Shown here: one piece after another, positions 10,911 to 56,280 of the stretch
Layout: each line of letters starts with the position of its first letter
Numbering within the stretch: the first letter of the stretch is position 1
The notes under the pieces: model-generated
Databases searched by the model: none
What the model was told of the DNA's origin: nothing
What the model saw: only the letters and a program-made list of their open reading frames with translations
Origin: Fimbriosthenelais zetlandica
Lineage: Eukaryota
Assembly (NCBI GenBank): GCA_977030845.1
Contig: OZ365112.1
Location: 35,216,001 to 35,280,000 of the forward strand
DNA length: 64,000 nt
Direction of reading: 5' to 3'
Made by a program: the position numbers and the translations under genes

Positions 10911-11743
10911 AGTAGTTTATGGTTCAGAAGAATCATTCGTGCTTGGTGTGCATACATAAGTCTTCCTAATATATTTTGCAACTAAGGTGGTCACATAAAT
11001 GACGGAAACCCCTATCCTATTTTTCAGGATAACCAGGTGAACGATGGGCTGGAGACATTAGACCATTATCTAAATCCCTAATGATTACGGGTGCCTTATC
11101 TTTGTAAATCAAGCTTGAATAAATTACGTCGGCAAGTCTTACTTGTGTTATATCTCAATGTGTAATACAGTTCCTCCTTGTCTTTAGACTACATCTGTAA
11201 GACACGCCCCCTTCTTCCGATGCTCATATATCACGTCTACCATGCTCCCCCACGCATCACTATATAATAAAGCCCTTAAGCCACGCTAGGACACTTACCC
11301 ATATACTCACTAGAAACTAGACGTAGTGTTGTGTGTTCTCGCTTACATTATATTCAGCATAGTTATATCTACATAATCATCCAGCATAACCAAGATATAA
11401 CACTTGTAAGTTATGGCGACTAAGGTGGTCATATAAATGATGGAAACCCCTTCTTTTTCAGGATAATCAGGTGAACGATGGGCTGGAGACGTTAGACCAT
11501 TATTTAAACCTTTAATGAGAAAAGGTGCCTCATCTGTGTAAATTATGCTGAATAACCTCAAACTTAAAGATCCTTGTTATGAAATGTTCCTACCTGAGTT
11601 TCCCCTTCTCCATGTGCACAAGCACAAAATAACTGTATTGTTTGCCGCCTACAACGAGGCTGGAATTCTTCAATTGTTCCTAGTTACTTCAATCAACACA
11701 CCACCCCAGGTCTGTACAAAATAATTGACAAGTAAATGAAAGA

Positions 11744-17649: not shown

Positions 17650-18230
17650 TACTGGAGATCATAAGCCTATCCAAAGTAGACACTACCATGTCCCTTTAGC
17701 AAAACGGGAAATCATAGATAAACAGGTCTCTGAAATGTTAGATGCGGGTGTGATAAAGTCATCTTACAGTCCATGGTGATTGCCTGAAGTACTAGTAAAA
17801 AAGAAAGGGGGAGAGTTCAGATTTTGTGTTGATTTCAGGAAATTAAATAACATCACAGCAAAATATAATTGGCCCTTGCTTGTAATCGATGACATTCCCT
17901 TACTTGGATAATGTGATCATCTCCAGTAAGAGTCCTGAGGAGCACCTGGAGCACCTACAATTGGTTTTTGATAGGTTTAGAAAGTCTAACTTGAAATTAA
18001 AGAGATCAAAGTGGGAGTTCTTCAGGGAGGAATTGAAATATTTGGGACATGTTCTAACTAGAAGGAGAATACTACCTGACCCTGACAAGATAAAAGTGAT
18101 TCAGGAATCGTCACATACAAATAATGTAAGGGACATAAGGGGATATATTGGGATGACCTCTTTTTATAGAAAGTTCATCGAGGGCTATTGCTCTGCCTTA
18201 ACTAGGTTAACGAAAAAACCTGGTCAGGCT
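17650..18230 (+). mobile_element. Gypsy reverse transcriptase fragment (internally deleted)
   Basis: KKKGGEFRFCVDFRKLN; YLDNVII (decayed YLDD); LKYLGHV; IRGYIGMTSFYRKFI. Confidence 0.9.
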
Positions 18231-18959
18231 TGTCCACACTAGTATTTTTCATCACTTTTCCTCAAAAACATGTCACCATCTATGCATGGTATTTTATAAT
18301 TCAATTTACATGGTTCTTTTATGGGAAGGGTGCAGCTGCCACCTCTCCTCGGCATGAAACGCGAGCCAGTAATGCCTCCTTGGCTCCACCAGCCCCTCAG
18401 GCAGGAGGACAGGACCCCCCCCACATGAAAGAACTGAGAGGTCCTCTGGCTCCACAACTGTGCTAGGGAACTCGCCCTATGTGAGGGATTCATCAGAGAC
18501 CTCCAAGATGGGGACCTTCAGAAGTACCGAACAAAGTTAATGGGCAGGACGACGGTGGCCAGGGACTGGAACCACAGCAATGCCACTAACGCCACAGACC
18601 TGATCTTGGATCAGGCTGAGGTGCTTCGCCCGTCATAGTCATAGGGGATGACACATAGACGGACAAGGAGACGGCCCCTCAATCAAGCAAGAGCCAATGG
18701 CCAGCCCTGCATCTCCCCCACGCCCCACCCAGAAGTGAAGGACGTCATACAGGCATAACCAATTCTACTTCAGAAAAAAAAATGAGAAAATGAATCTAAT
18801 AAAGGCAGACATATAATGCCAAAAAAAAAAAAAACTGAAATAAAAAATCAGACGGGCGGCCACAACTGTTCCGTCCCCCGCCCCACCCACACCTCACCAC
18901 CAACTTCCCCCAACCCCTCTTCACCTACTTCACAGGGGTACCAACACACCCGCACACAT

Positions 18960-20700
18960 GTGCTGGCCACCTTATAGTGGACGAGCAATTTGCTTGGCCT
19001 TAACCAGCAAAAGGGCAAATTGGTCCAGACTTTCTCTGACCATCTCTTAGAGACTGCCGAGGAGGCTTATGGACGGGACAATTTAGGTGAGCCCTTTATG
19101 CAGCGTCAGCTGTCACAGACTTTCACTAATGGGCTGGTGGACCAGCATATGGTCCGCCAGATTATAAAGAGTATTGCCACCCTTGAGGAGGCAGTATGCA
19201 TTGCCCCAGATGAGCAGAGTGTAAAGGTGACCATGAGTCTTTGTTCTGGGTGGTCGGAGGAGCCCATTGAAATGGACTCCTTCTCTGGGGCTGTCAAGAT
19301 GCAGAATTTGGAGGAGGCGCCGGGTTAATAGCAAGCCTTAAGGAGAGTAAAGTAATCCCTCCCACGGGTAAGTCCACAGGTAATTCCGAGGATAGACGGA
19401 AATGGATGGCTGATGGACGCCCCATCTGCCTTTATTGTAAGCGGCCAGGCCACTTGAAGAAAGAGAAGAAAACTAAACAAAAAGACACCAAAAAACGAAT
19501 AGAAACCTACGCAACTGCAGAGGCAACATAATTGGTGATGCCTGTAGGAGGCGCTTGAGACCTTTTATACTAGTCAAAATTGGGGAGGTGGAAGTGTGGG
19601 CACTCCTTGATATGGGCACCGATACATCCATCATAGCTCAGGGGTTTTTGGCTCAAATTACAGGTGAAATTTCGGGCCTCAGCAGGGAGGAACAGGTCCT
19701 AGAAGGTATAACTGAACATAGGCCTTTTGTACTTGGGTCCTGTGCCGTCACTCTTAAATTCCCCTCCAAGACCATTTATCAGGAATTTACAATAGTTTTG
19801 GGCATCACCAAAGACATTATTCTGGGAAGCGATTTTCTGACTGCCAATGAGGCAAATTTTGGCTTCTCTGACAAAAGTCTGTCGATTGGGAGGGATGTTA
19901 TCCCTCTCATATATAAAGATGAATTAGACAAACGACTATCCTTGGCCCGGGCCAGGGAAACCATGTCGGTTCCACCTTTCTCAGTGGTGTATATAGATGT
20001 TATGTTTAATAAAGGTCTGACAGGAGATTACCTCATCATTCCCCAAGGTAATGCTCCTGTCCTGACTGATCAGCCAGTGATAACTATGTCTAATGTACTA
20101 ACCCGTATTACAGAGGGGCACGCAGTTCTGCCTATTTTGAATAATACAGGTGGTCTATTCAGGGTGTCCCTAGAAGGACCGCAGTACCAGGCTTTGTGTG
20201 CATTTCCATAAAGTTAATGGAGTGCTAACTCAAAACAGTTATCCTAAGTGTTGCCTAACATAAGACATTTTTACACATTTAGGAAAAGCAAAATTCTTTA
20301 GTTCTTTAGATCTCAAAAGTGGTTTTTGGCAAATAGAAATCAAAGAAATTGATAGCTGTAAGACAGCATTCGTCACTCATGACTCATTGTATGAGTTTAA
20401 TGTAATGCCTTTTGGTTTGAGCTGCGCCCCCTCTGTCTTCCAAGAATTAATGAACAAGGTCTTTGTGGCATACAAAATAAATATGCCATTGCATATCTTG
20501 ACGATGTGGTCATATTCAGTGAAACTTTTGAGGACCACTTGAAACATCTTCAAGATGTTTTTGAAAATGTGAGTTCTTACAGCCTGAATTGAAATACTTG
20601 GGACATATTGTCTCATCGGAAGGGATCTGTCCCACTAATGAAAAGATTCAAGACATTCAGAAACTATCACCGCCTAGGTCGGTCAAAGATAAGCGTTCTT
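18960..20700 (+). mobile_element. Gypsy gag-protease-RT remnant
   Basis: Gag with CLYCKRPGH knuckle; protease ALLDMGT...ILGSDFL (ORF 19555-20211); RT motifs LDLKSGFWQI, EFNVMPFGL.CAPSVFQ, and a frameshifted LDDVVIFS. Confidence 0.9.
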
Positions 20701-20932
20701 TTATTGGGGACGGATGGTGAAAGACTATTTACAGCGCCAATAAGGGTATAGGAAATAGGATATACATTGAATCATACTTCCTGCTCCATCATGGCCATGT
20801 GTAGACTTTATTGGTGAGTTCACTGTTTAAAAACTTTCCATTTATGGCTATCTGCATCATCATAATTATGAAAAATTAATGAACATTATATCAGAACTTG
20901 CCGTGAAATGATATATTATTGAAGAGTGTCCT

Positions 20933-21305
20933 TTGGTCTACAGGATCTGGACTTTGTTGATTATGGGAACAACACATGCTGCGATATTGAGACACAACTA
21001 TGGTGCAGTACTCAGGCCTCCAGCTCTGAAAAAACATTACTTTAGAGATCTCACCCCCATTCCAGTCAGAAAAATTGGACAGTTTTCAAGATCATCTATA
21101 TCGGCTTTGCAATGACGCATATAAGAAGTTTAGGGACATCCTAGATGAATTTAGTGAAGGAAATCTAGTTAGGAAACGAAATAACTGGAGAGGATTACAA
21201 GTAATTGGCGATGGTCTGAGTTGGGCTTTTGGCACAGCCACTGAGATAAAGGGCATATCCTCTGACATGTACAAGGTTATTATGACCATGCATACTACCC
21301 AGGTC
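20933..21305 (+). pseudogene. Gypsy env N-terminal fragments (F-like)
   Basis: Signal peptide plus AILRHNYGAVLR; RKRNNWR followed by GLQVIGDGLSWAFGTATE. Confidence 0.7.
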
Positions 21306-21399
21306 AAAGGAAGACCCTGCTGATGTTTATGTCAAGGCGCGGGAAGAGGACATTAGAAAACAGGGCCTTTTCGCTGTGGCCTCTGAACTGCAGGCTCAG

Positions 21400-21950
21400 A
21401 GAGAAGATATGGTGAAATTGATGGAAAAAATGGTAAAAGGCAGGGCAAGGCTGCATCTGAGACCGCATCAGCCTCGCTTATGAAGCACTTCACCCAAGTG
21501 CCGGAGAAATTTGCCAGACCAATTGCCAAAAGGTCAGTGAATAGATTCATGAGGGAGTATCAGCAGTATGCAGGAAACATGAGGGCAACCCCTCGAATCA
21601 TGTTCGAGGGTATAGGTCATTTCTTAAACGGCAAGGCAGAGGCCTTTTATGAAGCCTATAGAGCAAAGGAATCACCTATAGACTTTATGACCTTTGAACG
21701 ATAGTTTAAAAATGCCTTTGAAGCGCCCCCCTTTGAGGAGAAACTGAAGGGTTATACTATAAGAAACAAACATCTATTGAAACGGTAGAAGAGTACAACC
21801 AGGATATGCTGATTCTGCTGGTGAGATTGGGGTTGCCAGAAGTCACCCTAATTGAATTTTACATCACCAATTTACAAACGGACCTTGTAAAGCTAGTAGC
21901 AGCTGACAAACCTAAAACCCTGATGTGGTAGTCACCATCCTAAAATACGA
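21400..21950 (+). mobile_element. Gag fragment of another retroelement
   Basis: RFMREYQQYA...IGHFLNGKAEAFYEAY...FERxFKNAF, then a frameshifted IEFYITNLQ..LVKLVAADKPKTL. Confidence 0.6.
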
Positions 21951-22415
21951 ATTAACCATTCAAAAAATTGAGTCAAAGAAAATGCTTGATGTTAAATCTC
22001 TGGCAGACAAATTGGTACAGGTCTGGAGAGCCAATGCACTGAGATCTCTGTCGGACTCCTTGTCCACAGTGTGGTCAATGTTGTTGCACTCTCCATCTTG
22101 AGAATGCCGCCAGGTCCCATGGCTTCCACATAAAAGACAAGATAACCATTAGGGGACCAGCTGTGGTATTAAAACTTCACTCATACGCTTCCCGCTCCTA
22201 GTCTAAAATGTCCCATTTTCTCTACTACTACTCTGCCACTTACTTTCTTGACCTACATTCTATCGGCTGATCCGTGTTTATAAACATAATCCAGGTCAAC
22301 ATAGCCTCAAAACCGGAAGTGAGTCAGTCAGTCACTGGTTGGAGGCTACGCACATGGCCATTGTGACTGAAGACAAGAAGGCGGGATACCACATCGCGAG
22401 TTAATCAACTCGTCC

Positions 22416-22667
22416 ATGATGGGTTTAGACCTGAAACCCATAGGGCTAGACTGTTTCACCCGGGCTCCCAGGGTATCAGTTGTGCCCCCATATATAGATA
22501 TGCGTTCGGGGTGGTCTTGGGTGACAGTGGTTCTGATTGTGGGACTGGTTGAAATCGGTCTGTACGTGTTGTACCATAAGTGCAGCTGTAAGGGTCTGCG
22601 GGGCTGCAAGCCGAGGCGGACAGAGGACGTAGAAGATGGTTCCGAGAGTCTGAGGTACAGCAAGTGA
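22416..22667 (+). mobile_element. Env-like transmembrane anchor and cytoplasmic tail fragment
   Basis: WSWVTVVLIVGLVEIGLYVLY followed by a Cys/basic tail (HKCSCKGLRGCKPRR). Confidence 0.4.
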
Positions 22668-26349: not shown

Positions 26350-27849
26350 GAAGCTTTGTGCATTGATCTTTAATCAGATGTCCATTAAAGAGTTCACACA
26401 ATATAACCAGTCATCTGATGTTGTGGAGGGATTTGTAGATTATGGTGAAGGACTTTGACAGGAAAGATTTCTTGCCAACCATGCATTGATACGAGGGCTG
26501 CATTCAAAATGGAAGCAACCCATTGGGTATGTGCTAACATCAGGACCTATTACTAATGACAAACTTCATCTTGTTCTACAACATTGTATGGAGAAAGTTA
26601 GTGAAATAGGTTTTGTTGTAAAAGCACTCATTTGCGATCAGGGTTCAAACAACAGGTCCTGCATGAAAACGATGTTTGGCGAGGGCCACCTGATGCACAA
26701 AAACAAAAAGGTCTTTCTGTTCTACGATCCACCACATCTCTTGAAGAGTGTCAGAAATAATTTTATGAAGCATGGCTTTCAGCTTCATGGTGAGAATATC
26801 AGCTGGGAGTTTGTTGAAAAGTTTTATTATATTGACAAACAAAATCCTATTTAAATGGCTCCAAAACTTAATTACAACAGCACAGCACATCACTGAGTGG
26901 TCGTGCCCTCAGAGCTGGGAATCCCCTTGGCCCTGCTGAGGGCATGACCGGTCAGATGAACACGAGACCCCAGAGCAGTAAGACTGTACACAGGCCACTG
27001 AGTAACTCAACCTCACACCCTTATTGCCCGTCTCTATCATCTCACCCTTCTCTACCTTTATACTACAGTAAGTAAATCGTATACACACACATAGGACATA
27101 CATACATATATCGGACATCATAGAGTATACAATCCCCATAGGCAAAAGTACAACATTGGTATTGCCCGTCTCTATCATCTCACCCTTCTCTACCTTTATA
27201 CTACAGTAAGTAAATTGTATACACACACATAGGACATACATACATATATCGGACATCATAGAGTATACAATCCCCATAGGCAAAAGTACAACATTGGTGT
27301 CAGAAGTCCCGATTCGAAACCATATTATAACCATATTAATATACCACCATTTGGTAAAATGAAAGTTAACCTTGCAGCCCAAGTGCTCAAAGCTATGATT
27401 CTGGTGAAACACGCTAATGTGCACCCAATAACAAGAACATCCCAGCATTATGCACTCTCCAACGAATTTCACAAGTGGAATACGAAAGATCCAAAAGACC
27501 AACTCTGTGATGTGCAACTTGTGCCAGAACTTAGGGGAACAACAAACACGCAATTATGTGAGCAGTTGTTTAGTGTTCTGGACCGAGACACCTATTTTCT
27601 TGATAGGATGTCTCCAAATAAACATATGGTCGTTCTCCGGTTAATACTCCACCTGAAAAACTCTGCAAGAAACAGGAAATCCAGAGACCTAATGCAGAGC
27701 AAACTGAGAAAAGGTTGGCATCTAAAGGTAACATGTCTGATAGAAATAGCTGTACTTCTGAAGGAAGTTCTTGTTGTTTTACCTGAATTGGGAATATATT
27801 GTTCAGGGTACCCGGTACAGTGATACCCTTCGCAGGGCCAATTATTTGG
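26350..27849 (+). mobile_element. P-element transposase fragment fused to a KDZ/HMGXB3-like transposase fragment
   Basis: P motifs KLCALIF.QMSIKE, WKQPIGY, ALICDQGSNN, YDPPHLLKSVRNN, KMKVNLAAQVL; then FHKWN...VPELRG.TNTQ.CEQLFS...YFLDRMSP..H. Confidence 0.8.
26878..27320 (+). mobile_element. Inserted LTR 3' part plus tRNA-Leu-type PBS, containing a 138-bp tandem duplication
   Basis: ...AGTACAACA T TGGTGTCAGAAGTCCCGATTCGAAAC (PBS from 27295). Duplicated unit 27023-27160 / 27161-27298. Absent from the homologous copy at ~48380. Confidence 0.7.
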
Positions 27850-27883
27850 TAAAAAGTGGAAGACTGAATTCCAAAAAAACGAT

Positions 27884-28290
27884 CTGGTGAAACACCCTAA
27901 TGTGCACCCAGTAACAAGAACATCCCAGCATTATGCACTCTCTGACGAATTGCACAAGTGGAATACGAAAAGATCCAAATGACCAACTCCTAATGTGCAA
28001 CTTGTGCCAGAACTTAGATTTCTTGGCCTTTATGATATGAGGGCTGCATAGAAAAAATGGAAGCAGCCCATTGGGTATGTGCCAACTTCAGGACCTATTA
28101 CTACTAGCCTTTATTGGCTCGAGTGGCTTGTAACCAATTTTGTAAATTAATTATTTTGCAGAACCGCATATCGGCTATCGTTCCGGCAAATTTTCTAGAA
28201 GGGGGCACTACAACACTGTATGGAGAAAGTAAGTGAAATAGGTTTTGATGTAAAAGCACTCATTTGCGATCAGCGTTCAAACAACAGGTC
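27884..28290 (+). mobile_element. Further short KDZ-like (27884-28017) and P-transposase (28020-28290) fragments
   Basis: Near-copies of 27400-27535 and of 26500-26660 (WKQPIGY; ALICDQ.SNNR). Confidence 0.75.
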
Positions 28291-28293
28291 GCT

Positions 28294-29165
28294 TTAGCTC
28301 AGCAGGGAAATGGTCTTCTCTGTTTCGCTAAGACTCACATGAATGAGGCTTCTTTTCTTTTTTAAAATTTCACCCAAGAAATTAATTCCTTTATCTCTGA
28401 GTCCACCCAACAGACCGCTGAATTCAGGAAATTCAATAAGAAACTTTTCAAATACAGAGACCGCTTCTGCAGAATGGGTTGGCCATAGATGGACAACTCC
28501 AATATTTTCAGGCTAGTGATTAAATTTACAATGCCCTATTGCTACTTCTTGATGCTGAATCATCTCCCACTATTCTTGACAAATCTTGGATGGTAAGTGA
28601 CAATAAAAGATCAGCTTGCCGAATGCAGCCCATATGGCGAAACTATACTCTGTGCCTCAGGAGTTGTGGAAAACACAGGGATGAGACACAGCTGGCCTTA
28701 TATAACAATGTGGGGAAAGAAGTATTAAGTCACTGTCAAACTAAGACATTTCTCTCCATGTCTATCAGTCCCACACATGTAACTTTGAATGACACCAGGC
28801 ATGTATTAATAGCACAGGGTACCACAGGTACAGTCTGTCCAAACTAAGTTGACCCGAAACTACAGTACAAATGTATGGTGGTTTCGGGTCAACTTAGTTT
28901 GGACAGACTGTATATCAAAGTGTCCAGACCATCCTAGCCAATACTTGAGCCTGGGTTTTTTTTATGATGTGTTGATGTGCTTTGTGGGTTTGAGTTGGAA
29001 TTGTCTGAAGCTACCTTGCACGCAAAAATCTCGCCATGAGGTTCAAGTCAGTAGTTTCGAGCAGCTCACGAGTTGGTCTACTCATTTTTCCTTCTACTCA
29101 CCCCCATACCTTTATCATCTAGGTAAGCTACTCTTACTCCATAGATGCAGACACCTCATCATCAC
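28294..29165 (+). pseudogene. Env fragments related to the 38130-40250 env, out of colinear order
   Basis: 28294 matches 38655 (AQQGNGLL); 28660 matches 39101 (CASGV.EN); 29030-29165 matches 38855-38990. Confidence 0.7.
28831..28910. mobile_element. 80-bp Tc1/mariner-type MITE
   Basis: Perfect 30-bp TIRs CAGTCTGTCCAAACTAAGTTGACCCGAAAC, 20-bp spacer, TA on both sides. Confidence 0.85.
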
Positions 29166-31240: not shown

Positions 31241-31560
31241 GTGAACGATATCGCCATGCACAAAGTCAACTTCGGTTTCCCTATGGTGATACCTGAGCCG
31301 ATTGTTCCTATTAATATTAGTGTGCATGCTAATAATCTAAACCTAACACAGCTGGATAAATTGGAGTCATTTCAAGATTATCTCTTTGAAATTAATAACC
31401 AAACTTATTCGAAAATACACATAAGACACGGACCAAAAGAAGGGGAATTCAGTTGGTGGGGGATGCATTGAACTGGGCCTTTGGCACAGGAACTGAGCCA
31501 GAGATACAGGATGTATCCTCTGATCTACATCGCGTCATTCGCACAATGCAAACAACGTAA
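31241..31560 (+). pseudogene. Gypsy env fragment with furin site and fusion peptide
   Basis: Alternate frame from ~31429 reads RTKRR then GIQLVGDALNWAFGTGTEPEIQDVSSDL. Confidence 0.75.
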
Positions 31561-31665
31561 CTGAATAATTTGCAAAGAATGATTATTTTTAGTCCAAGGT
31601 ATAGGGAGGCAGGGAGGCAAGGACGCGTCTCTTTTGATCGAGCTGTTCGTCTGACCACTTTGAAA

Positions 31666-31800: not shown

Positions 31801-32348
31801 AAAAAAAATATACTCCAACACTTCATCAGAGCTTAGGTCAGAGGATAAAGGCTAGGTCCTTCTCAACTGAGAAGTACATTGAACATGTGTCATTGTACAA
31901 AATCGAGGATGGTAACAATGATCAATACAATGATCTCTACAATGATAGAAGCACCACAGCCAGAGAAAAAATGAATCTCCACAGTCATAAAGTATTTATT
32001 TCTTGGGGCACAGTGAAGATTTTGGACGGGATGTTTCCTTTACTCCATCAGCTCTTATTGTATCGGGATACTCAGTTGTGGGGCCTTTTTCACCAACAAA
32101 ATGCTATGAAAATTGATTAGGTATAATATTAATCTTTTGTTTTACAATCACGCCAATATTAATAAAATCATTTCCCAAAAAGAATAGTTCAGTGTATACA
32201 AAGCACTGAGTGACCGAGTGACCACCTCGTGTTTGTGGCCATTTTGGTGACCAGCGTCCCAGGCCACATGTGGGACGAGTTTGTTGTGAAAAATCTGCCT
32301 CCTGATTGGCTTAACGCCGCACACAGGGAGGGCCTGGCTACTGGTCAA

Positions 32349-32790
32349 TTACAAAGAAGAAGGGAGGTAGTGACAGTTAATGCAGGTGGCATATGAGATC
32401 CATGTGATGGAGGTGCCACCTGCACCGTGACTTGAGTCCATAGGGCTCACCTTTGGATGGTGCAGTTGTCGACCCGTCCTGCATCTCTGCTGGCGAGCAG
32501 ATCTCAATATACAAGTGTATGGCATGCAACGGAGGATCTCACTCCAGTCGAAGGTTGTAGTTCCCTTTTCCAAAGTCGACAAACTGACAAAAGCCTGTGG
32601 GGACAGCCAGACCGACATAGTCCTGACGGTGGTGCCACCTCAAGGGGGACATCACCAGCTGGCCTGGGCATCCCATTATACTGGACGGATTCCGTTCACG
32701 GAATTCCAGTGAGTTATCATTTCTGTTTTGGGGTGGCGTAGAATGATTGGCGGTGCCTAAAGATCGATATACCTTTCCAGGGGAACATTA
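32349..32790 (+). pseudogene. Env C-terminal cytoplasmic domain fragment
   Basis: Homologous to 52620-52820 and 53440-53800 (LQRRREVV...MEVPPAP.LESIGLTFGWC.CRPVLHL...VYG.QRRISL). Confidence 0.75.
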
Positions 32791-33089
32791 TGGTTTAAGT
32801 ATTGAATCTGGTATTGAAGCTGATAGCCTCCAAATACCCCCATCTGTAACTGACAACACAAACGGCAGCTCCCGAATAGATATTAAATATAATGGGAACG
32901 TTGCTAGGGGCCATGACCAGGAAGAGCTCCCTGGTGTTGCTGTTGGTGGCCGACCCAACCTTTCCCAAACCTCCCCATACTATGAGACTGGCACTGCCCT
33001 GTCTGGCATCACAGAGTAATTTGTCTAAAGTAATATGTCAGCTGGTTGGTCTCACAGGCAAGAGCCCTGTAATACTCCAGACAAAAGGA

Positions 33090-35226
33090 ATGTCTGATAA
33101 GGTCAATAACCGAAGTTTTCTAGAAAAGGGCCTCAAAGTCCACCACGGAGAAATTGTATTTTGTTCATGAAGGCAAACATATCTATGTAATGTATGACCC
33201 TCCTCATTTGTTAAAAAATGTTAGAAATAACCTCATGAAGCATGGTCTAATGTATAAAGGAAACAAAGTGTAAGTGTCTTGGGATCATCTTGGGATATTG
33301 TTTTTAATAAAAGTTGTTCTGTGAGAATGGCCCCTAATCTAACAGATAAGCACATAAATTTACCACCATTTTCGGCCATGAGAGTTTGCTTAGCAGCACA
33401 GATTTTTTAGCCACTCAGTTGCAGCAGGGGTGGCTGTAATGAGCTCAGATGGGTGGAACATGCTGTCACCTGAAGCACGCCACACTGCAGAGTGAATGAA
33501 TGAATGGTGATTTAACGCCATGCCTGCTGCTAAAGGCTATATTCATGGCGAGAAATAGTTTGTCAAACAATTAATATTGAAACATTAGGACCGAAACCAT
33601 CAAGATGTAATCAATAGGGTTAAAAGAAGTATGTAGATGAGTAATAAAAGTAAAAAGTTGAGGTAAAATTGCAGAAAGTAAAAGGATTGATCTATATAAT
33701 CAGCAGTGTTTATTAAAGCATGTAAATTCTGACAGTCTTCTGCTTTCACTTTGCAGAGTTTATAAATGACATGGACAAGTTATTTAATAGTTTCAATAGT
33801 TCCACTTTGAGAAGTAGCCAGCCCTTCCGTCATGCTATTCGAAACGGGAGTGGCCATGTGGAACATAAAAAAATGCCCTTGTTTGGATGAAGAGTTTGAC
33901 TTTACCATCTGGAAAGCAAGTCCCATGTTTTCTGGGCTGGCAAATCTCTATTCAGAGTGAACTCTGTTTGTGGGAAGACCTGAGACAAAATCATAATTAT
34001 TCCTATCTGCTCACAAATAGACTGAACAAGGATTGGCTGGAAAATATGTTTTCTATCATTCGAGGAAAAGGGGGGCTTCAGAGACAATCCAAACCCTGAG
34101 CAGTTTTGATCCGCATTCCATCAGGTCATTGTTGACCAGCTCTTGGTTCAAAGTGATCCCAGTAACTGCTCTGCGGATCTAGATAAAGTTCTTCTTGATC
34201 TATCATCAATAAATGCTTCCTCCACATCTAACATTCCTGTTTCAAGTCCATCATCTCTTTCAAATGCACCCCTTGATCCAGTAAATCAACAAGACACCCC
34301 CTTGCCAGATTTTGAGGTTTTAGTTCTTTTTCCCCAACTTCCATCTCTACCTGAGCAGAACAGTCTGACCTATATTGCAGGATACCTCCTCAGAAAAAGT
34401 GAAATTATTGGTTGCAAAACTTGTTGCTCCATTTTTACATATATAACACCGCCAGAAGAAAGCAACTATGATTTTGTCCGCGCCAAAGCTTACAGATTGG
34501 AGGGAACTCTAATATATCCATCTGTACTATTTGTTGCATTGGTGACCAAACTAGAGTCAAGGTTTAATTTCATTTTCCCCTCTGTCATGCATACAGCTGG
34601 GGTTATGTTAAAATTGTGTACCACCTCATTTACTTGTATCAAAGAACTTGCAATAGAAACATGTGGGGAGAAGGAATGCCAGAGCAGCTTAAAAAAATGT
34701 GTAACACTTTTCATGAAAGTGCGCCTTCACCTCTGTTTAAAGATGTCAAATATAAGTAATAATGATGAGTCAAAAGGTACGAAAAGGAACAGGAAGGTAT
34801 TGAAGTTGATGCACTCATGATGTGTGATTATGTTATCGAAGATGTAGTTAAACTAACTTGGGTGAACAGCTCTCATTGATGGAATCATAAGATCATACTG
34901 TTTCACTTCGTTTGAAGTGAAGTCACACATAATTTTATTTTGAGCTGATGATTTTTCTCCTTGTATATGATAATACATGTTTACTTTGTTTTAAGTAAAA
35001 ACATTCACGCATATTTTTAGCTGATGCTTTTTGTCATTGTGTAAGATAATGCTGTTTTACTTTGAAGTAAAAACAGTTGCACAGGGTGAAAAGACGAGAT
35101 CCATAATACTTAACACTTAAGCACAATTTAACTCTGCTTTTGTCATGGTATACATATATGATCTCATATTGAATAGATATTGTTGGCCACAGATGCCCGA
35201 GCAAGCTCTACTTTAAGACTTCATTG
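33090..35226 (+). mobile_element. P-element (THAP9-type) transposase remnant with C-terminal region and probable 3' terminus
   Basis: YDPPHLLKNVRNN, MAPNLTDKHINLPPF, DKLFNSFNS, LTNRLNKDWLENMFSIIRGKGG, C-terminal YIAGYL...YPS...RLH. Ends ...GACTTCATTG (reverse complement CAATGAAGTC). Confidence 0.9.
33494..33751 (-). mobile_element. (ATTC)n-tailed retroposon inserted in the P transposase
   Basis: Starts GAATGAATGAATGGTGATTTAACGCCATGCC; 8-bp TSD TGCAGAGT (33486-33493 and 33752-33759). Removal restores the reading HTAEFINDMDKLF. Confidence 0.8.
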
Positions 35227-35479
35227 TTTGTTATTCAAATAATGTCAGATTAGAATACTGCATGTACATTTTTTGTGCATTTAGCCTACATCCTATTTCT
35301 CGTGAAATTTGCAAATTATTGTTAACGTGCCCTGGTGAGGTGAGCAGGGAAGAAAACATGTCCTGGCAACGTCAAGCAGCCAGAAATAGCCCATTAAGAA
35401 AGTCATTAGACTCTCTAAGCGTGCCAGAACTCACCACCAGGCACTCGGGGAAGCGATACCCAATGTTGATGATGAGATT

Positions 35480-36740
35480 TATGGGGAAATTGGCCCTGAG
35501 TTGGGGATACCTGTGAGTTTGGAGCAGTTAAAGAAAATGCAGGGGGAAGATCCTGTATGTAAGGGTTACATTCAGTTCATAACCAATGGGGAATTGCCAC
35601 TTGAAAATAAAACAGCGAGAGAAATCATTCTTTCACACAACAAATTCTTTATCAAAAGTGGTATATTACTTAGGGTCCCCAATAAAATGAAAATAGACAA
35701 GATTTTGGAATCAGTTCAAATTGTAATACCCTCTAGTTTGGTGCAGCAAATACTACAGGTGTTGCATAACTGGCCCACGGGGGTCATTTGGGTATATCCA
35801 AGATGATGGGAATCATCCAGAAACGGATGTACTGGTCAGGGTTAGCGAACGACATAGCACAACATGTAGGCATGTGTAAAACATGTTTGCAAACTAAGCC
35901 TTCTTTGCATCCTGTTAGACCACCAATGACCTTGCGTGACCTGGCTCCAGCACCATGTGCTCACGTTATGATCGATGCTATTGGGCCTATGACTGTGACT
36001 AATTCCGGAAACCAATATATACATGTAGCTATCGACATGTAGCTTTACACATTATGTTATAGCATGGCCCACCACAAATTTAACAGCTAACACCTCCAAA
36101 AAGGAATTCTTCCAAAAGGTATTGTGTGTCTGGGGAATACCACACTGCCTGTATTCGGATAACGGAGTGCCATATTCCGCTAAGGAATTTAAATCATTTT
36201 GTCATACTTTCGGAATTAAACAAATATTTGGCTCTGCATATAAACCCACTATGCAAGGGCAAATTGAACGCATGAATAAAAACATAGTGCATTCCATTAG
36301 GGCCTTTGTTGCAAAGAACCAGAAGAACTGGGATGTCTTTATACCCGCAGTAACGTTTGCCATTAATATTTCTGACTCCTATAGTCTTGGGTATTCACGC
36401 TACCTGCTAATGCGGTAGAAATGCAACCGCACCCCCAGAGGCCGTATTAGGAGAAGTGGAGGAGTGGAAGCCTATTCTGGAGCAGCTCACAGAGCTCATG
36501 AATCGGCAGTCTGCAGCTGCTGAGCAGGCCATGAGAAACCTTGAAATAACTCAGGGTAAAATGAAGCGTCGCTTTGATGAGGGCGCCGCCTTGCCTGCTC
36601 TAAGGCCAGGCATTATTGTGTATGTCAAAATTAATAGGCTCTTGCATAAGAAAACATCTCGTAAGCTTCAGCCCGTTTATAGGGACCCTATATCATTACT
36701 GGTATGCCATCACGCCATACAGCGCAATTACATAATTTAA
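35480..36740 (+). mobile_element. Gypsy integrase (H2C2 finger, DDE core, C-terminal region), frameshifted
   Basis: LH..PTG/GHLG...MYW...CKTC; IDAIGP; YSDNGVPY; QGQIERMNK; GIIVYVK...KLQPVY. Confidence 0.92.
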
Positions 36741-37809
36741 ATAATGGTAAACAGGAACCTAGACCTGTAAGTATCACTGGTAGGTCCGGTGTAAGGGGTG
36801 GCCTTGGCGCCCAAGTCATTAAGCTTAGCCGGCAAGCTGCTGTAGGTATATACACGCAGCCGCCAGTCCCTGGTGTATCAGTTCTCTCAGCAATTCACAA
36901 GAGCACAGACGGGAAACTGTAAAGCCTCCTCCTCTCCATCAACTCTAGCAATCACCATGATGTCTCTCATACTAATGTGGTAAGAGTTTATAAATTCTTT
37001 CGTGCCTACTTTCTGTTTTAAAATGTATTTGTGTAAATGTATTTACTCTGGAATTACAAGGGATTAGCACCGCCTGGAGTACATACTATCATGGAGAGCA
37101 CTTGTTGTCTTTTTGGGATCTCCCTCCTGGCCAGTCAGGTGTGTGGTGCAATAGCAACAGCAGGCACTACAGCAGCGCCACCATGTATACTCCGCCAGAA
37201 TTATGGCATAATCTTTGGCAGAAAACCCTTTCGACTTGAAACTCAAATCTCCACCCAGCATGTAACGTTTGACATCCCCATACAGATTCAACTCTACATG
37301 AACCCACAACTCATCACCCTGCACCCTCAATGCTGGATCCCACTCTATCTGCACCTACTCAAGAGGACTTGGGTAACATAGCTTTCCACCCAGGGCCTTT
37401 GACAAGGTCCAGGGCTCACCAACTCCTCTACAAGAGGGAAGCTACTCCCCCAGCCGAACCACCAACCCCTGAGGAAGTCCAGGCCACCAAGCGAATTATA
37501 CTTGAAGATGAGAGCAGTTAAACTTAGTTAAGTTTAGGAAAATATTTTGCGTGCGAGAACTCGCCCAGCCAAAGATCAGGCAGGCCAAGTTTGACCGGGG
37601 TCATATGCGCAAACATATAGATAACCATAAATAGAAAGGTACTAAGCAGACATAAATTCTAAAAGGAATTTCTCCCAGATGTTAATGGAATCTTTGGCAA
37701 AGGTAACCATGAGTTCGGGTTCAGTGTGAGGTTAACGAGATTCATATCGCTGTATACATACAGGATGAACATTGCAGAAGTTATTTTGAGTTCCTAAGGA
37801 GGGGCGGCC

Positions 37810-40250
37810 TCCCAGAAAACAACCAACTGGCTCCTGGTATTATTGTTTATGTCAAGGTTAAGAGGTTGTTGTGTAAGAAAACTTCACGCAAATTACAACC
37901 AGTATATATATGGGACCATTTATTATTACAAATATGGTTTCTAGGCACAATCCAGGCTGCGAAATTTGCAAACGGGGAATCAGGTCCCACGGCCTGTTAG
38001 TGTAACATTGCTAAAACCTTTGACTCGACCACTATCTCGTAAATTCATAGAGCGGGAAGTATTGGTTGAGGATCCTCAGGAGGAATAATAAGCAGTAGTA
38101 TAGTTTTATACCAAGCCATATTAGGGCCTCAGATTACACTCAAGCGCTCAGCTAGAGCTAAGAGTGCACAAGGCTTGGATTTAAATGGACACAGTCTATG
38201 GTGAGAGATTTGAGTGATGTGTGGATGGAGGTAGCTGGAGTTGGTTTTGTAGGAAAAACCAATCTGGACTCCTGCAGACCGATGCACGAGGAGGCGGTGG
38301 CCTTCCTATTAAGAGTGGCCATAGCCAAATAAGTGCATGGTGACAGGGGATACTCTTGAGCCCTTTGGCCCCTTTCCATGAATAATCTCACCCTTTTACA
38401 TGACCACCTATATAATACCAACAATAGAACATATAATCGTATTCTGGCATTATTAACCGATTTTGAATTGAGTACTGGGAGCAAGCTACGTGTCAAAAGG
38501 ACTGGAATACAGTTCCTGGGCGATATGCTAAATTGGGCAATAGGTACTGGGACTGAACCAGAAATAGAAGATGTGGCCTCGGATTTGTACATGGTAATTC
38601 AGGCAATGAAAACTACGCAACTAAATATGGCACAGAGGGACGCTATCCTGGTGGCTTTGGCTCAACAGGGAAACGGCCTTCTGCGTTTTGCTAAAACTCA
38701 CGACATCGTGTTTCTGAATATTCTAATTATAATGATGGAATCCTCCACTTCCATCATCACAAAAGAAGAGAGGGTAATGTTATATATCAATGGTGTATAC
38801 ATTTGACCTGCCATAAAGGCACACTTCTGTACCTACATGATTCTATATTGAAATACAAGCAGTAGCATTTCGAGCAGCTCACAAATTGGTCTACTCATTT
38901 TTCGTTCTTCTCGCCCGCCGTACCTTTACCATCTACGCTAGCTACCCCTACTCCATAGATGTAGACACCCCAACATAACACTATACAGAAATTCAGGGCA
39001 CTTTGCCAAGGTATCTAGTAGTAAATAGGCATGCATAACGGCATGTGCTCGTCACTGAGCACTTGCTGAACGGCTGTTCTGAGTACAGAGACAACCTTGT
39101 GTGTGCCTCTGGGGTTATTGAGAATACACCTGAGAGGAACAGTTGTATCTGGGCCTTATATAACAAGGAGGGCCAGGCAATTGTGGACTTATGTCTGATC
39201 CGGACATTCATCAGTAACAGGGTACCTCCTGTCTTGGTGAATGTCAATGAGTCTCGCCATCTGGCGACCACTAAGGGAAAGAGTGGAATATTGAAATATG
39301 TCGGTCATCCTAGCCAGCATATTGTCCTGGCACTCTTTGTAGTAATTGACGTACCCTGTGGTTGCACTTTGGAATTAACGGATGCAACTCTACATGCTAG
39401 AGTTGCTCCCTGTGGGATTGATCACAATAATTACAAAATTAAGGTTCAAACGGGGTTCAATCTACCTTTGGCTATAGCGTTTCATCTACCTGTACCCCAA
39501 TATCATGGAGCTAGTTTACATGATTCCCTTGTCCATTTGCATTTGCCCACTGCCCGTCAAATACATGATGTTTTGCACAATATTCCTAAAGAGTTGATAC
39601 AGTATGGCATGAACATTAAAACGGTTGCTGAGCATGTCCAGCAATCGGATAGTGATAGCATGAGTACTTGGAGTAAACTGCATGTCCAGGACTACTCGCC
39701 TCATGTGTCTTAACTTGGTTGCCGTTGTGGCTTTGGTTTTTTCTATAATCTCCAGTGTGTTTTCACTTTACCTTTTCTATAGGTTGCATGCCATTGGAGC
39801 CATCCTCACACTGACGAGGCGATCGTTTGCGTATGAGGTGGCGACACTAGGCCTAACCCCTCTACACATTCCGTGGCCGATAGAGGGTGAATCCACCCCT
39901 GCCACGCCCACGGAATCCCCGTTCAGGATACTCCACCAGACCACTAACCAGTGGATCCCTATTGTGTTAATTTGGCTTGTTGTGTGTGTTACTGAGTGGT
40001 GCTGCTGGAAGAGAATGAAGGGCCTCAGATGATTCTGTCGTTGTGACACGACAATCAATGAGGCTTCTTCATGGATCGTGCTCAAGTTACAAAGGCGTTG
40101 GGAGGTGGTTTCTCTCCGGGTCATGCTACTTGCCTATGAAGTGCATGCGATGGAGATACCACCAGCTCCCGGAATTGATGCCATTGCATGCCATGCATTT
40201 GATTGTGTGTTTGAGCATTGTACCAATAATCATCATACTTACTATGGAGG
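37810..40250 (+). mobile_element. Integrase C-terminus followed by a decayed F-like env with two-TM C-terminal extension
   Basis: GIIVYVKVKRLL.KKTSRKLQP; RVKR then TGIQFLGDMLNWAIGTGTE (38489); Cys-rich ectodomain; TM1 LVAVVALVFSIISSVFSLYLFY; TM2 WIPIVLIWLVVC..WCCWK. Confidence 0.85.
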
Positions 40251-49337: not shown

Positions 49338-50460
49338 ATGTCAAAAAATGACAAACTTTGTGCGCTTATTTTTGATGAAATGTCCATTAAGGAATTTGTA
49401 CAATATAATCAGGGATTGGATACTATTGAGGCATTTGTAGATCTTGGAGAGTTGGGACAGGAGAGATTCATAGCCAACCATGCCCTGGGATTCATGATCA
49501 GGGGACTGAATTCAAAATGGAAGCAACCAATTGGATATGTTTTGACATCTGGTCCTATAAACCATTAAAAACTGAATCCAGTATTGCAACACTGTTTGCA
49601 CAAAATTGAGGAAGTGGGGTTTATAGTAAAGGCATTGATTTGTGATCAAGGGTCCAACAATAGGGCATGTGTTCAGTCTCTTTTTAATGATGGTGTCATG
49701 AAATTCAAAAATGAAAGTGTTTTCCTTTTCTATGATCCCCCTCACTTGCTCAAGAGTATCCGAAACAATCTAATGAAGAGTGATTTAGTTGTGAATGGTG
49801 AAAATGTGTGCTGGGGTTATGTTAAACATTTCTTTCATCTGGATCACTCACAACCTGTAAGGATGGCACCAAAACTGAGTGAAAAACACATCAATCTTCC
49901 CCCCCTTTGCAAAAATGAAAGTGACTTTGGCAGCACAAGTCCTGAGTCATACATTAGCTGCAGGAATATCAATTCTTGTCAGGACTAATGATTTGCCTCC
50001 TGAAGCTATTCATACGGCCCCTTTTATTGAAAGAATGGATCAACTTTTTAATTCATTCAACAGCAGAACCCTCAAGAGTAAGCAGAAATTGGGAAATGCC
50101 TTTTCAGATATCTCTGGTCATACCAATTTTCTTTCTGATTGTATCCCTTTATTTCAAAATATGACACTGGCAGACGGGAAAAAGGTTCCATGTATTGAAG
50201 GGTGGGTAGTCACCATAAAATCATTACTTCGTTTGTGGGAGAACCTTAGGGATGAGTATGGATTCAAGTTTCTCGTGACTAATAGATTAAACCAAGATTG
50301 TATTGAAAATTTGTTTTCTGTGATAATGGGGAAAGGGGGGCATCGAGATAATCCAACACCACAACAATTTCGGGCTGCATTCAGAGTTGTAGTTGTAGAG
50401 AAACTCCTAATACAAAGTAAGGGGAGTAATTGTCAGGAAGATCAAACTTTTATTTGCCCT
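49338..50460 (+). mobile_element. P-element transposase catalytic core, two frameshifts
   Basis: FDEMSIK (D), ICDQGSNN (D), LNQDCIENLFS (E); GTP-binding insertion region MAPKLSEKHINLPPFAKMKVTLAAQVLSH. Confidence 0.93.
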
Positions 50461-51876
50461 TAGCAATACCTCCTCCAGTTGTGCCCTTAAGCATGAATTG
50501 TACTGTATAAAATAGAACTGTTATAAATCACTGTTTTGCAACAGTGATTTATAACCACGCTAGGCCTACTGTAGGATTACATAGCATAGCGGTATTGGCA
50601 TGTCTCATATAATCATCAGATGATTAGAACTACCGGTACCGGTATGTTTTAAAGTAAATATTGATGGGGAAACCCAATTTTTTTTTACTAGGCCTGCATG
50701 TAGGCTCAACATGTTTATGATGTTAACAAAAAACTCGTACAGAAAAGGCAGCATTGCGGTTATGGTATGCCAGTATTATTTTGCTATTAGGCCTATATAG
50801 GGAAATTGAGACACAATATATACTGATGTTATGACTAATCCTATCGAACCCTTGCTATATTTTAGGTATTGTCTTATTGATCAAAGATTTATCTATAAAT
50901 TTGTCAATAAAATGTGTCAATAAAATTTAAAATCTTTCACACTTTTGCAACAATTCGACTTTTGAAAGTTCTTGGCTTCAGAATTACTATCTTTGTGTGT
51001 GAGGAGGGCAGTTAGGCCTACATTTGTTTAAGCGTGTGTTGAGTTAGGTAGGCCTACTTTAGTTCAAACTTTATCCATCCATGGCACTACCGAAGGCCCC
51101 AGGGCCCAATGCGTGATTTATGTATTGGAAAAGAAGGATCCAAATGTATAGTTAGTGGAGACCAACAGACATACTCAATCATGAAAAATCTCATAAATAA
51201 ATACCCTGATATTTATCATGGATTATTCCCATGCCAGGAGATTGGCACTTGTTAAAACTTGCCGCAGAAACAACAAGAGAACGATATGGGACGGAGGGTT
51301 ACATGACCTTGGCAAAATATGTGGTCACCACAAAGAAATTAATCAGTGGAGACACATCAACAATATACTAATAGGCCTTCACATAGCTCTTCTAATGGAT
51401 CTTCTAACCATTGTTCCGGCGGCAGATCTATCCCTGCCAGTGCTGGCTCCCTCCCTTTTGGAAGAGGTGTTGGGGCGGGGGGGCTTATGTGAGTACTTGG
51501 GAGTTCTTGAACGACCCCTTAATGACCACATGATGGGCGGGGGGTTCGGGGGGGGGGGGGGAGCCCCTGCTGCAGCTAGGGCAGCAGTCAGCCTTCCCCG
51601 AGGGATTTGACGCGGTGGGCCAGCTGGACAAGCACCAGAGTGTGTGTGTGACTGCAGGAGCGTGAGTAGGAGCGTGAGTAGGAGCGTGAGTAGGGAGTAG
51701 GGAGGCAGCATGGAGTGCCGCCCCTTGATGTACATGTATATGTAATTTAAGTAGTAGAACCCAGAGCTGTGTTGAGTTCATATCGACTCCTCTCCTCCTC
51801 ACCCCTAACGGCAGGGATAAGATCCCCAGTATAACATATTGGTGGAGAACCTAGGCATCCTAGTAAACGTCTAAAT

Positions 51877-53748
51877 TTGGGGATCTTTATAATATTGGAT
51901 ATTCCGTGTGGGTGCACTCTTGAACTGGGGGCCGCGACCTTACATGCCCAGGGGTGTCCCTGTGACTCACAGGGTGATAATTATGTCATAAATGTCCATA
52001 CTGGCTTCAACCTGCCACTGGCTATGGCGTTTCATTTATCAATACCGGAGTATCATGGGGCAACCATGCATGATGCTTTGATCCACCTACACATCCCTAC
52101 AGTCCAGCAAATTCACAAGACCATCCAGTTATTACCCCCTGATTTAATAAGGAACGGCTTAAACATAAAAACTGTAGCTGAACACGTCCAAAAAACGGAT
52201 AGTAGTGAGTTAACAGCATGGGATAATTTGCATGTAAAACCCATTGGTACGAACTCGTCGCATACCCTTGGCGTTGTGGCTTTGATTTTGTCGATGATAA
52301 CATTAGCGTTTGCCCTTTATTTGTTTTACAGGGTGCATGTCCTGACGAGTGTGCTTTTGATGGCCCGTACAAGTTTTTCGTATGATATTAAAAACCTCAA
52401 CCTTACCCCCATCAATATACCATGGACTGTTGGGCCTGTTGTGCAGCCCTCACTATCGACAGAAACCCCTTTCAAAACCCTCCATAGAACCACTCTTGAT
52501 TGGGTTCCATTTATTATCATGGTGGCGGTGGCTGGAGCAATACTGTGGTGCTGCTGGAAGAAGCTAAGGGGCATTGGCCGTTGGTGCCAGTGTGGTTCTG
52601 TAGAAGACATCGACGCCTCATGGATTGTTCTGAAGTTGCAGAGGCGGCGACAAGTCGTTACAATTCGACTTCTGCAATTGGCTTACGAAATACATGCTAT
52701 GGAAGTGCCACCTGCACCGGGCCTCGAGTCCATAGGGCTCACCTTTGGGTGGTGCAGGTGCATGTGCAGGCCAGTATTACATCTCGGCTGGCGAGGAGAT
52801 CTGGCCATACGAGTATATGGTGTATTTCATTTGTCAGTACCGGAATATCATGGAGCAACCATGCATGCCGCTTTAATCCACTTGCACATCCCTACCGTCC
52901 AACAGATACATAAAACCATTCAGATGTTACCCCCAGATTTGATAAGGAATGGATTAGACATCAAGACAATAGCAGAACACGTACGGAAAACAGATAGTAG
53001 TGAAATGACAGCGTGGGAAGATTTGCATGTTAAACCCATTGGAACTAACTCATCACATACCCTTGGCGTTGTGTCTTTGATTTTGACATTAATAACCTTA
53101 GTTTTTGCCCTATATTTGTTTTACAGGGTGCATGGCCTTACAAGTGTCCTCTTAATGGCACGTACCAGTTTTTCATATGACATTAGACACCTAAACCTGA
53201 CCCCCATCAATGTACCGTGGACTGTTGGGCCTGTTGTGCAGCCCTCAACGGAGACTCCATTTAAAAACCTGCATAAAACCACCCTTGATTGGGTTCCGTT
53301 TGTCATTACGGTGGCGGTGGCTGGCACGGTACTATGGTCTTGCTGGAAAAGAACGAGAGGCATTGGCCGTTGGTGCCGGTGCGAGGCATCATTGTCCTCT
53401 GTGGAGGACAATGATGCCTCGTGGATCGTCCTCAAGTTACAAAGAAGGCGACTGGTTGTTACCATTAGACTGATGCAGTTGGCATATGAGGTCCATGCGA
53501 TGGAGGTGCCCGTCCTGCATCTCTGCTGGCAAGGGGATCTCGCCATATGAGTGTATGGTGTCCAACGACGAATCTCGCTCCCGTCGAGGGTTGTGGTTCC
53601 TTTTGCCAAGGTCAGCAAGTTGACAAAGGCCTGTGGGGACGGCCAGACCGTCTTGGTCCTGACGGTGGTGCCACCTCAAGGGGGACATCACCAGCTGGCC
53701 TGGGCATCCCCTTATACTGGACAGATTCCATTCACGGAATTCCAGTGA
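51877..53748 (+). mobile_element. Env C-terminal half as two diverged in-frame copies
   Basis: 557-aa track ORF with an internal repeat; continues in frame past TGA 53548-53550 (CGA in the first copy) to 53748. Confidence 0.85.
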
Positions 53749-54030
53749 GTTATCATTTCCGTTTTGATAATGATTGGCGGTGCCTAAAGGTTGATATACC
53801 TTTCCAGGGTAAGTAATGCTGGTGTATATTATGGTTTAGGCATCAAGACAAGGGACAGGGTCTATTGATTGAAAATAGTGTACCGTATTTCCATTGTTAT
53901 ATTTAACAGTTATATTATGTATATATGCATTGCTTTCTGCATATATATGTTCTATTTATTTCTTATGATTTCCCTTCTTAGACTCGATGATGTGGTCGTT
54001 GACCCCCCTCATCCTCGAGCCTCCCATGGT

Positions 54031-54700
54031 GAGGGGGAGTGTAACGATATCGAGATGTAATGTACCTGCAGTGTTGAGCCAGGGACAACTGGCGTGTGAA
54101 CTCAGCTTATATAAGTATAATATGTAATGTAAATTCGATATAGCGGGAACGATTGACTTTTAAATACCAGTACTGCACATATATTGTTATATTATTCTGG
54201 TAGATTAGTTGTGGTAGATTAGATACACATTATATTCATTTGAACTTATGTATTAATAGATCGATGGGACGGTGGACCGGGGTGCCCCTCCAACTTGTGT
54301 CCTCCTACTAATACAGGTTGCCTGCAGTACGATAATTAAAGTAAAGTAAATTAAAGTAAAGTATAAAGAAGTAAGTTAGTATTGCAGGCCTAAGTAGAGG
54401 TGTAATAATGAAAATTAAGTAGTGGCCCTTTTCCAAAGTAGTAATGAAAAAAGAAAAAGGATTACTGCTGCTCCTAAAGTACTGGGAGTGCGTGCACGAA
54501 GGCCAGTCGATCTATATATGTATATTTGTCGGACTTATGATTTGATTATCATTATAATTCATGATTAATGTATTGGGTATAGTTTATCAAGGTCCTTGTC
54601 AAAGCAATATTTATGTTTATAATATCCCCTAATGCTTGATTTTGTGATCTCGGTAGTACCCATATTTTATCGTTTGATATCTTGTGTTTGATACATATGT
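54031..54700 (+). mobile_element. Polypurine tract and 3' LTR of the 51877 element
   Basis: GAGGGGGAG (54031-54039) immediately followed by TGTAACGATATCG. The LTR end is uncertain. Confidence 0.7.
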
Positions 54701-55389: not shown

Positions 55390-56280
55390 TATAGATACTG
55401 AAAGACTAGAACAAGAAAATGTCGACTCTAAGGCCAATTCTCAGTCAATGTTGAGACTGAATCTAGCCTTACTCGCCAAACATGCTGAGACGCTTGAGAA
55501 ACATGCCTTATTCATGGCGAGAACTAATTCACATTGAACCATTAATAAGACTGAACCATTAAGATCAAACCAATAAGGTAGACCTTTTTGAAACTTCTGT
55601 CCATGAATAAATACATGAATGAATGAATGAATGAATGAATGAATGAATGAATGAATGGTGATTTAACTCCATGCCAAAGCCTTATTCATGGCAAGAACTA
55701 ATTCCCATTGAACCATTAAGACTGAACAATTTAGATCAAACCAATAAGGTAGACATTTTTGAAACTTCTGTCCCAAGACAGAAAGAATGAATGAATAAAT
55801 GAATGAATGAATGAATGAATGAATGAACGAATGGTGATTTAACGCCATGCCAAAGCCTTATTGAATGAACGAATGAATGAATGGTGATTTAACGCCATGC
55901 CAAAGCCTTATTCATGGCGAGAACTAATTCCCATTGAAAAATTAAGGCTGAACCATTGACATCAAACCAATAAGGTAGACCTTTTTGAAACTTCTGTCCC
56001 AAGAATGGGGTGACAGTTGCTGTAGACACAGCTCTTCCAATCACAGGAGACTTAAAGACACTAAAAGACTTTGTTCTTTGTTGGCAATAATATATTGACT
56101 CCAACTCCAATTCTCGATACATCTCCAACATACAAAAACTGGCGATCACTTTGTGAGATTCTCCTCACAAGAACTATCCTTTTTAACAAAAGAAGACAGG
56201 GAGAAGTTGAAAACCTTCGAGTGCAAGCCTCCCGAGAACAGGCAAATTAGCAAGAAAGACAGAACAAGGAAATTGAGTCG
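55390..56280 (+). mobile_element. Tyrosine-recombinase-like gene fragment interrupted by a retroposon array
   Basis: LPITGDLKTLKDFV and SLCEILLTRTILFNKRRQGEV (R..E motif of the first catalytic Arg). Confidence 0.55.
55506..56003 (-). repeat. Tandem array of (ATTC)n-tailed retroposon 3' ends, ~3 units plus a fragment
   Basis: (GAAT)n GGTGATTTAAC(G/T)CCATGCCAAAGCCTTATT begins at ~55617, ~55800 and ~55863. Confidence 0.85.

Follow-up and report, generated by a model that had tools for sequence, protein, structure and literature searches.

The 64,000-nucleotide stretch of Fimbriosthenelais zetlandica DNA considered here (contig OZ365112.1, positions 35,216,001 to 35,280,000; the window) carries broken copies of the env gene of a Ty3/Gypsy retrotransposon family, and the 447 Mb genome (79 contigs, the window sitting on contig C13) was compared for paralogs. 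The present analysis suggests, with moderate confidence, that env encodes, in one frame, an F-type fusion protein together with a second membrane module, the latter being freed as a membrane-anchored, matrix-like protein for budding. This reading is based on the single two-anchor frame of many paralogs, on a conserved site behind the first anchor, on purifying selection, and on F-less elements that keep the module. The surprising part is the predicted matrix fold of negative-strand viruses, membrane-anchored and encoded in an errantivirus-type envelope polyprotein.

Two-anchor layout and predicted internal signal peptide

Anchors were surveyed in 48 sequences, comprising this genome's copies and public library proteins; P0033 (1510 aa, five short stretches) and window copy 2 (a near duplicate) were dropped ahead of the counts. 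Both anchors are present in 33 of the 48, the second alone in 10, and neither in 5, most of the 15 sequences that do not have both possessing a short N-terminus; the layout that the first-pass annotation had read from the window thus goes beyond chance. The tail after the second anchor measures 130–315 aa in 31/31 sequences (two truncated window copies excluded). In many paralogs, a single open frame of 661–890 codons encodes both F and the module, rather than the module forming a separate open reading frame (ORF), a possibility that the same annotation had raised, and the two-anchor layout is also found in 11 full-length library proteins of 758–888 aa. Canonical errantivirus and retrovirus Env has a single C-terminal anchor and a short tail, unlike the two anchors found here.

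The elements are Ty3/Gypsy (Metaviridae) long terminal repeat (LTR) retrotransposons, in agreement with the initial assignment of the protein as a Gypsy Env. In the paralogs, a gag with a Ty3 capsid, a pol with protease (PR), reverse transcriptase (RT), RNase H (RH), and integrase (IN), and env follow one another within near-identical LTRs. The PR-RT-RH-IN order holds in 4/4 paralog pol frames, and Ty3_capsid matches occur in five gag frames with scores below the curated cut-off. The LTR pairs are 99–100% identical in 8 of the 11 paralog elements examined; none was found for L031, L033, and L109 among these, nor for the window copies. The ectodomain model of a paralog matches the F proteins of paramyxo- and pneumoviruses, which makes the modeled Env ectodomain F-type (class I), and the ectodomain profile gives only weak coiled-coil matches against PDB sequences. 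The best BFVD match of the L031 ectodomain model is A0A145VUZ2 (E 3e-22), an uncharacterised 801-aa abalone herpesvirus protein that equals these Envs in length and lies outside the top 50 of the tail domain; it is possibly a captured Env.

The junction behind the first anchor was evaluated by a rule that asks for a hydrophobic core with small residues at −3/−1, 11–26 residues past the first Lys/Arg after an anchor; the rule is our own, written after the sequences had been seen, and is not a trained predictor such as SignalP. Among the 32 sequences tested, which have a median pairwise identity of 22%, 30 pass after anchor 1 (29 with A/G at −1), compared to 6/31 after anchor 2 (2 with A/G at −1), 6.1±2.1 for shuffled spacers, and 14.6±2.7 for shuffles with the core fixed, the observed count being reached in 0 of 1000. 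A single aligned column holds A/G in 23 of the 32 and A/G/S/C in 27. All ten of the homologs found later, which belong to one subfamily, pass the rule and have an N-glycosylation sequon just past the site.

The topology is consistent with such a junction. The C side of anchor 2 is the more basic one in 32/32 sequences, so the spacer must be lumenal, and the spacer contains 22 sequons versus 9.9±2.8 expected, with no sequon excess in the tail. The middle stretch would make a weak permanent anchor, its best 19-residue hydropathy averaging 0.93, and 27 of 32 sequences have one or more Cys close to the inner end of anchor 2. The site test against its three controls, the topology, and the sequon enrichment together support the internal signal peptide that had been suspected from the window motifs, and it is very likely that host signal peptidase cuts there, freeing a second membrane protein. 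The predicted junction has the design of alpha-, flavi-, and bunyavirus polyproteins, in which an anchor, a basic residue, and an internal signal peptide are followed by a signal-peptidase cut that frees the next membrane protein. Those viruses, however, have class II fusogens, and the proteins they release have large outer domains instead of a matrix-like one in the cytosol.

The modules of window copies 1 and 2 give dN 0.088 and dS 1.37 over 107 codons (dN/dS 0.064), and since their differences are mostly silent, the module was under purifying selection in the source lineages. For four young pairs the ratio of 0.14–1.4 is uninformative, as it comes from just 4–16 differences, and three further comparisons are saturated at synonymous sites.

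Cytosolic domain and F-less elements

The cytosolic domain comprises about 120 aa in the open-frame paralogs. A conserved domain of some 130 aa had been described from the window; it is a composite of broken copies, because no window copy holds the whole domain. The AlphaFold model of a paralog domain has a pLDDT of 95, and its six best structural matches among 48,161 PDB chains are all Mononegavirales matrix (M) proteins, with modest Z scores of 5.5–3.6. Matrix proteins rank at the top in two structural alignments, the PDB matches, which come from four virus families, converge on this one class of proteins, and the BFVD matches are M-named or M-sized proteins. The earlier guess of a matrix-like role has in this way gained support from the predicted structure. 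Further matches of the domain model are seven long viral glycoproteins, of which six are chu-like, and the F model matches them too.

Foldseek against the PDB returned nothing at E ≤ 0.001, the domain profile has 0 matches to PDB sequences at E ≤ 10, and Pfam gave no informative family; no sequence similarity to M families was seen. Word-seeded homolog searches found nothing with two queries and, with a third, 13 proteins, none informatively named. The M families are themselves described as being without overall sequence identity to each other, and the Borna M tetramer and the paramyxovirus M dimers are reported to share their shape (PMC3887258). A four-copy complex prediction in which the alignment was not used, and in which the domain's own fold is uncertain, scored 0.00 and weighs on neither side. 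Judged from the models, true homology of the domain to Mononegavirales M is likely. Like Borna M (3f1j), the C-terminal domain of M from Newcastle disease, measles, Hendra, respiratory syncytial, and human metapneumovirus, and filovirus VP40, it would be a single beta-rich domain of 120–140 aa. It differs from these in being anchored, in frame with F, derived from an envelope polyprotein, and located in a retroelement. Mononegavirales M proteins are encoded by separate genes and are soluble peripheral proteins; the second protein may thus work like M by analogy rather than being a member of the family.

The module is also found in two young F-less lineages, in open frame (the start codons of these frames are inferred). 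In L041, an open gag of 612 codons and an open pol of 1407 codons lie between LTRs of 99.1% identity, and the third frame consists only of a signal-like N-terminus, the spacer, anchor 2, and the domain, with no detectable F remnant. In the L042/L043/L109 family, pol is followed by a frame (346 codons in both L042 and L043) that carries some 110 aa of Cys-containing sequence in place of F, ahead of anchor 1; this sequence, at L042:2600-2984 (−), has no family match below E 0.4. In the integrase tree (9 rows), the F-less elements join F-bearing L033, L035, and L111 (100/100), apart from F-bearing L037, L039, and L113; the tree used is that of integrase only, the RT tree having no starred branch. 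The simplest reading of these sequences is loss of F with retention of the module. The proteins resemble sORF2, a FAST-like short protein of MDG1 retrotransposons, in being small and single-pass and in occurring in Env-less yet mobile Gypsy elements; in the part of the sORF2 report that is available (PMC11952523), however, sORF2 is a separate short ORF with no mention of a matrix-like domain or of a link to an F polyprotein.

Env copies and other features of the window

The motifs quoted in the first-pass annotation are all present. VLTSVLLMARTSFS lies at 52339-52380 in copy 1, with a counterpart at 53134-53175 in copy 2, and AIGAILTLTRRSFA at 39790-39831 in copy 3; W[CS]CWK[KR] is found at 52546, 53335, and 39997, and [AS]SWIVLKLQRR at 52615, 53416, and 40066. 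All three copies described there were located, and a fourth fragment was added to them (Table 1).

Every window copy is broken, and none has a complete cytosolic domain. The single open frame at 51835-53550 (571 codons) consists of two related env ends, copies 1 and 2 (79% DNA identity). It starts at a motif resembling a primer-binding site (PBS; 51840) that is fused to the 3′ part of env, with no gag or pol adjoining in the window; since this motif meets the env similarity at 51862, gag, pol, and most of env have been deleted. Copy 1 stops about 70 aa into the domain at its in-frame junction with copy 2, which itself has lost about 21 codons and meets a stop at 53548-50, its frame continuing to 53748. 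Copy 3 (39.7 kb), which is more distant, is interrupted by a frameshift near 39710 and by a stop at 40030-32, and its similarity fades near 40185. Pol is represented in the window by integrase and scattered fragments only, the likely 3′ LTR start has no partner there, and Pfam gave no informative family for the env and module frames of the window. The window's own copies are dead remnants.

Table 1. Positions of env-related features in the window
Feature	Positions	Strand	Basis or remark
PBS-like motif, joined via internal deletion to 3′ env	51840..51850	+	near-identical motif after 5′ LTR in L041, L042, L113; role inferred
Copy 1, C-terminal part of F-type ectodomain	51862..52260	+	tblastn to paralog Env, 37%; paralog ectodomain model
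Copy 1, first membrane anchor (F anchor)	52267..52329	+	hydropathy 2.5 over 19 residues
Copy 1, putative internal signal peptide: Arg, a short hydrophobic run, then S-F-S	52330..52380	+	predicted cut after 52380; cleavage inferred
Copy 1, Pro/Ser/Thr-rich spacer, 40 aa, predicted lumenal, N-x-T sequon	52381..52500	+	family-wide sequon enrichment
Copy 1, second anchor ending WCCW, then basic residues and more Cys (putative palmitoylation)	52501..52557	+	
Copy 1, N-terminal ~70 aa of matrix-like cytosolic domain, ended by copy 2 junction	52612..52821	+	fold from paralog model
Copy 2 overall, starting with end of F	52825..53748	+	dN/dS versus copy 1
Copy 2, anchor 1	53062-53124	+	
Copy 2, signal-like stretch	53125-53175	+	then spacer
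Copy 2, anchor 2	53290-53346	+	
Copy 2, cytosolic domain with internal deletion and stop	53413-53745	+	
Polypurine run then TG, likely start of 3′ LTR	54028..54045	+	inferred from sequence
Copy 3 overall	35432..40185	+	Pfam rve, tblastn, motifs
Copy 3, degraded integrase	35432-36778	+	Pfam rve
Copy 3, broken env, two-anchor tail as in copies 1/2	38369-40185	+	tblastn
Copy 3, signal-like stretch	39781-39831	+	WCCWKR at 39997
Fourth fragment, broken cytosolic domain only	32345-32712	+	85% identical to copy 2 in 313 bases of DNA; tblastn

More scattered RT, gag, and env pieces of this clade occur at 17901-22628, 28288-29042, and 31349-31578, making the window a nest of decayed copies. P-element/THAP-type transposase fragments are interleaved with the Gypsy remnants at 49879-50463 (Pfam TNP-like matches) and, by DNA similarity or by eye, at 26351-28290 and 33000-34820. 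Repeats comprise a 2.84-kb tandem duplication (99.6%), a 19-bp tandem array, a 40/81-bp tandem array, and ATGA-rich repeats (jointly 8859-14538, 849-1606, 3353-3946, and 55505-56004). About 1 Mb away, L002 (G000:C13 near 34.22 Mb) is an inverted sequence 95% identical to 51114-54291; it shares further features with the window, pointing to a segmental duplication.

Two further features were seen in the paralogs. An insert of about 100 aa lies between protease and RT at L041:3130-3460 and L035:8750-9100, with a weak match to the herpes dUTPase family in one of the two (E 0.04). Extra open frames with Cys/His clusters stand beside env at L037:803-1663 (−) and L044:5877-6779 (−), of 287 and 301 codons, respectively, with no informative Pfam match; the L037 frame was considered as a relative of the matrix-like domain and rejected, being unrelated on comparison.

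Proposed mechanism, alternatives, and implications

In the mechanism proposed here, an N-terminal signal peptide would direct F into the endoplasmic reticulum, and anchor 1 would halt transfer. The Arg/Lys and the hydrophobic stretch would then restart translocation, with a cut at A/S/V-x-A/G/S that leaves F with only a short stub. The second protein would be of type I, with a glycosylated outer part of 25–55 aa, anchor 2 flanked on its inner side by Cys and basic residues, and, inside, the matrix-like domain; with F and M in one frame, the two would be made in a 1:1 ratio. By analogy with Borna and paramyxovirus M, the domain may oligomerise under the membrane, bring F together with the Gag capsid, and drive budding, a matrix function that we consider somewhat more probable than not. 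It would substitute for the myristoylated matrix protein (MA) absent from these Gags: a Met-Gly start is found in 0/7 Gag frames, which fits the absence of a retroviral MA. Four Gag frames (L041:830-1000, L042, L112, and L036) share a short N-terminal amphipathic-looking helix, K/R-F-x-x-F/L-x-x-x-V/A, which could be a candidate partner of the domain. F and M were likely acquired as one cassette shared with jingchuvirus-like viruses, in either direction of transfer.

We have also considered that the second protein is released and serves an accessory role, as an F chaperone, a trafficking adaptor, a defence antagonist, or a sORF2/FAST-like cell-to-cell factor, the matrix resemblance being either a generic beta-sandwich likeness or a relic whose matrix role has been lost. 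This main rival keeps the cleavage, and we regard it as rather unlikely. A generic likeness does not readily account for matches that cluster on a single class of proteins, with four virus families represented in the PDB and M-named or M-sized proteins in BFVD, nor for both halves of Env matching the same viral glycoproteins, and sORF2 is described as short, whereas the module here has 200–300 aa with a folded domain.

It is less probable still that no cut takes place and that Env is one three-pass protein, with the middle stretch as a lasting anchor and the matrix-like domain as a covalent tail of F. Two points weigh for it and against release of a second protein, namely that the topology demands a membrane crossing and not a cut, and that 2 of the 32 members fail even the loose site rule. 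However, small residues occupy one aligned column in 27/32 (A/G in 23), the middle stretch is short and weakly hydrophobic, and in L041 it forms the N-terminus of a stand-alone ORF. An artefact of decayed, duplicated, or chimeric window copies would be suggested by the breakage of every copy and by the chimeric frame of copies 1 and 2, but the layout recurs in long open frames of elements with 99–100% identical LTRs and in the full-length library proteins; the paralogs refute this explanation, which we hold to be extremely improbable.

The proposed F-M arrangement has partial counterparts among known elements and viruses. Env-bearing Ty3/gypsy errantiviruses are spread across animals (PMC13524379; Chary & Hayashi, eLife 2026) and share with the present elements the gag-pol-env order, the LTRs, the class I F ectodomain and its basic furin-type site, and the wide distribution. 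In the available portions of that report, Env is cut at the anchor and analysed over its ectodomain alone, from signal peptide to anchor, "cytoplasmic" being absent from the main text and "matrix" from the supplements; the present Envs continue beyond that point with another anchor and a folded domain. The long Jingchuvirales glycoproteins (of Aliusviridae Ollusvirus and a Mivirus) are class I fusion proteins of >1000 aa, seven of which match both the F and the tail models, and differ in belonging to negative-strand RNA viruses. In the ICTV profile of the order (PMC10770922), the genes given are GP, NP, L, and unknown ORFs, with no matrix protein named, and Viro3D (PMC12583693), in the part available, places Aliusviridae class I glycoproteins in a clade of unusually long proteins and mentions no matrix domain. 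The literature searched, whose coverage leaves out most subscription papers, contains no description of the module or of a matrix fold in the envelope proteins of Gypsy elements or jingchuviruses, and the module is not described in the available parts of PMC13293379, PMC11122063, PMC11952523, or two bioRxiv preprints.

For this Gypsy clade, the link between capsid and envelope without a myristoylated MA has been unexplained, and a candidate protein and mechanism can now be named. A second shared gene besides the fusogen would tie the retrotransposons to Monjiviricetes and bears on the origin of the errantivirus env, while the matrix gap of Jingchuvirales becomes testable, the tails of the long glycoproteins being where a matrix could sit. 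More tentatively, and with somewhat less than even confidence, the clade may bud like a negative-strand RNA virus by means of an Env-derived anchored matrix, the same F-M polyprotein being the unrecognised matrix gene of the long-glycoprotein jingchuviruses and perhaps ancestral to the separate M and F of Mononegavirales. A membrane-anchored single-domain M would, if true, represent a new state in matrix-protein evolution, and F-less elements with M alone would form enveloped particles without a fusogen of their own.
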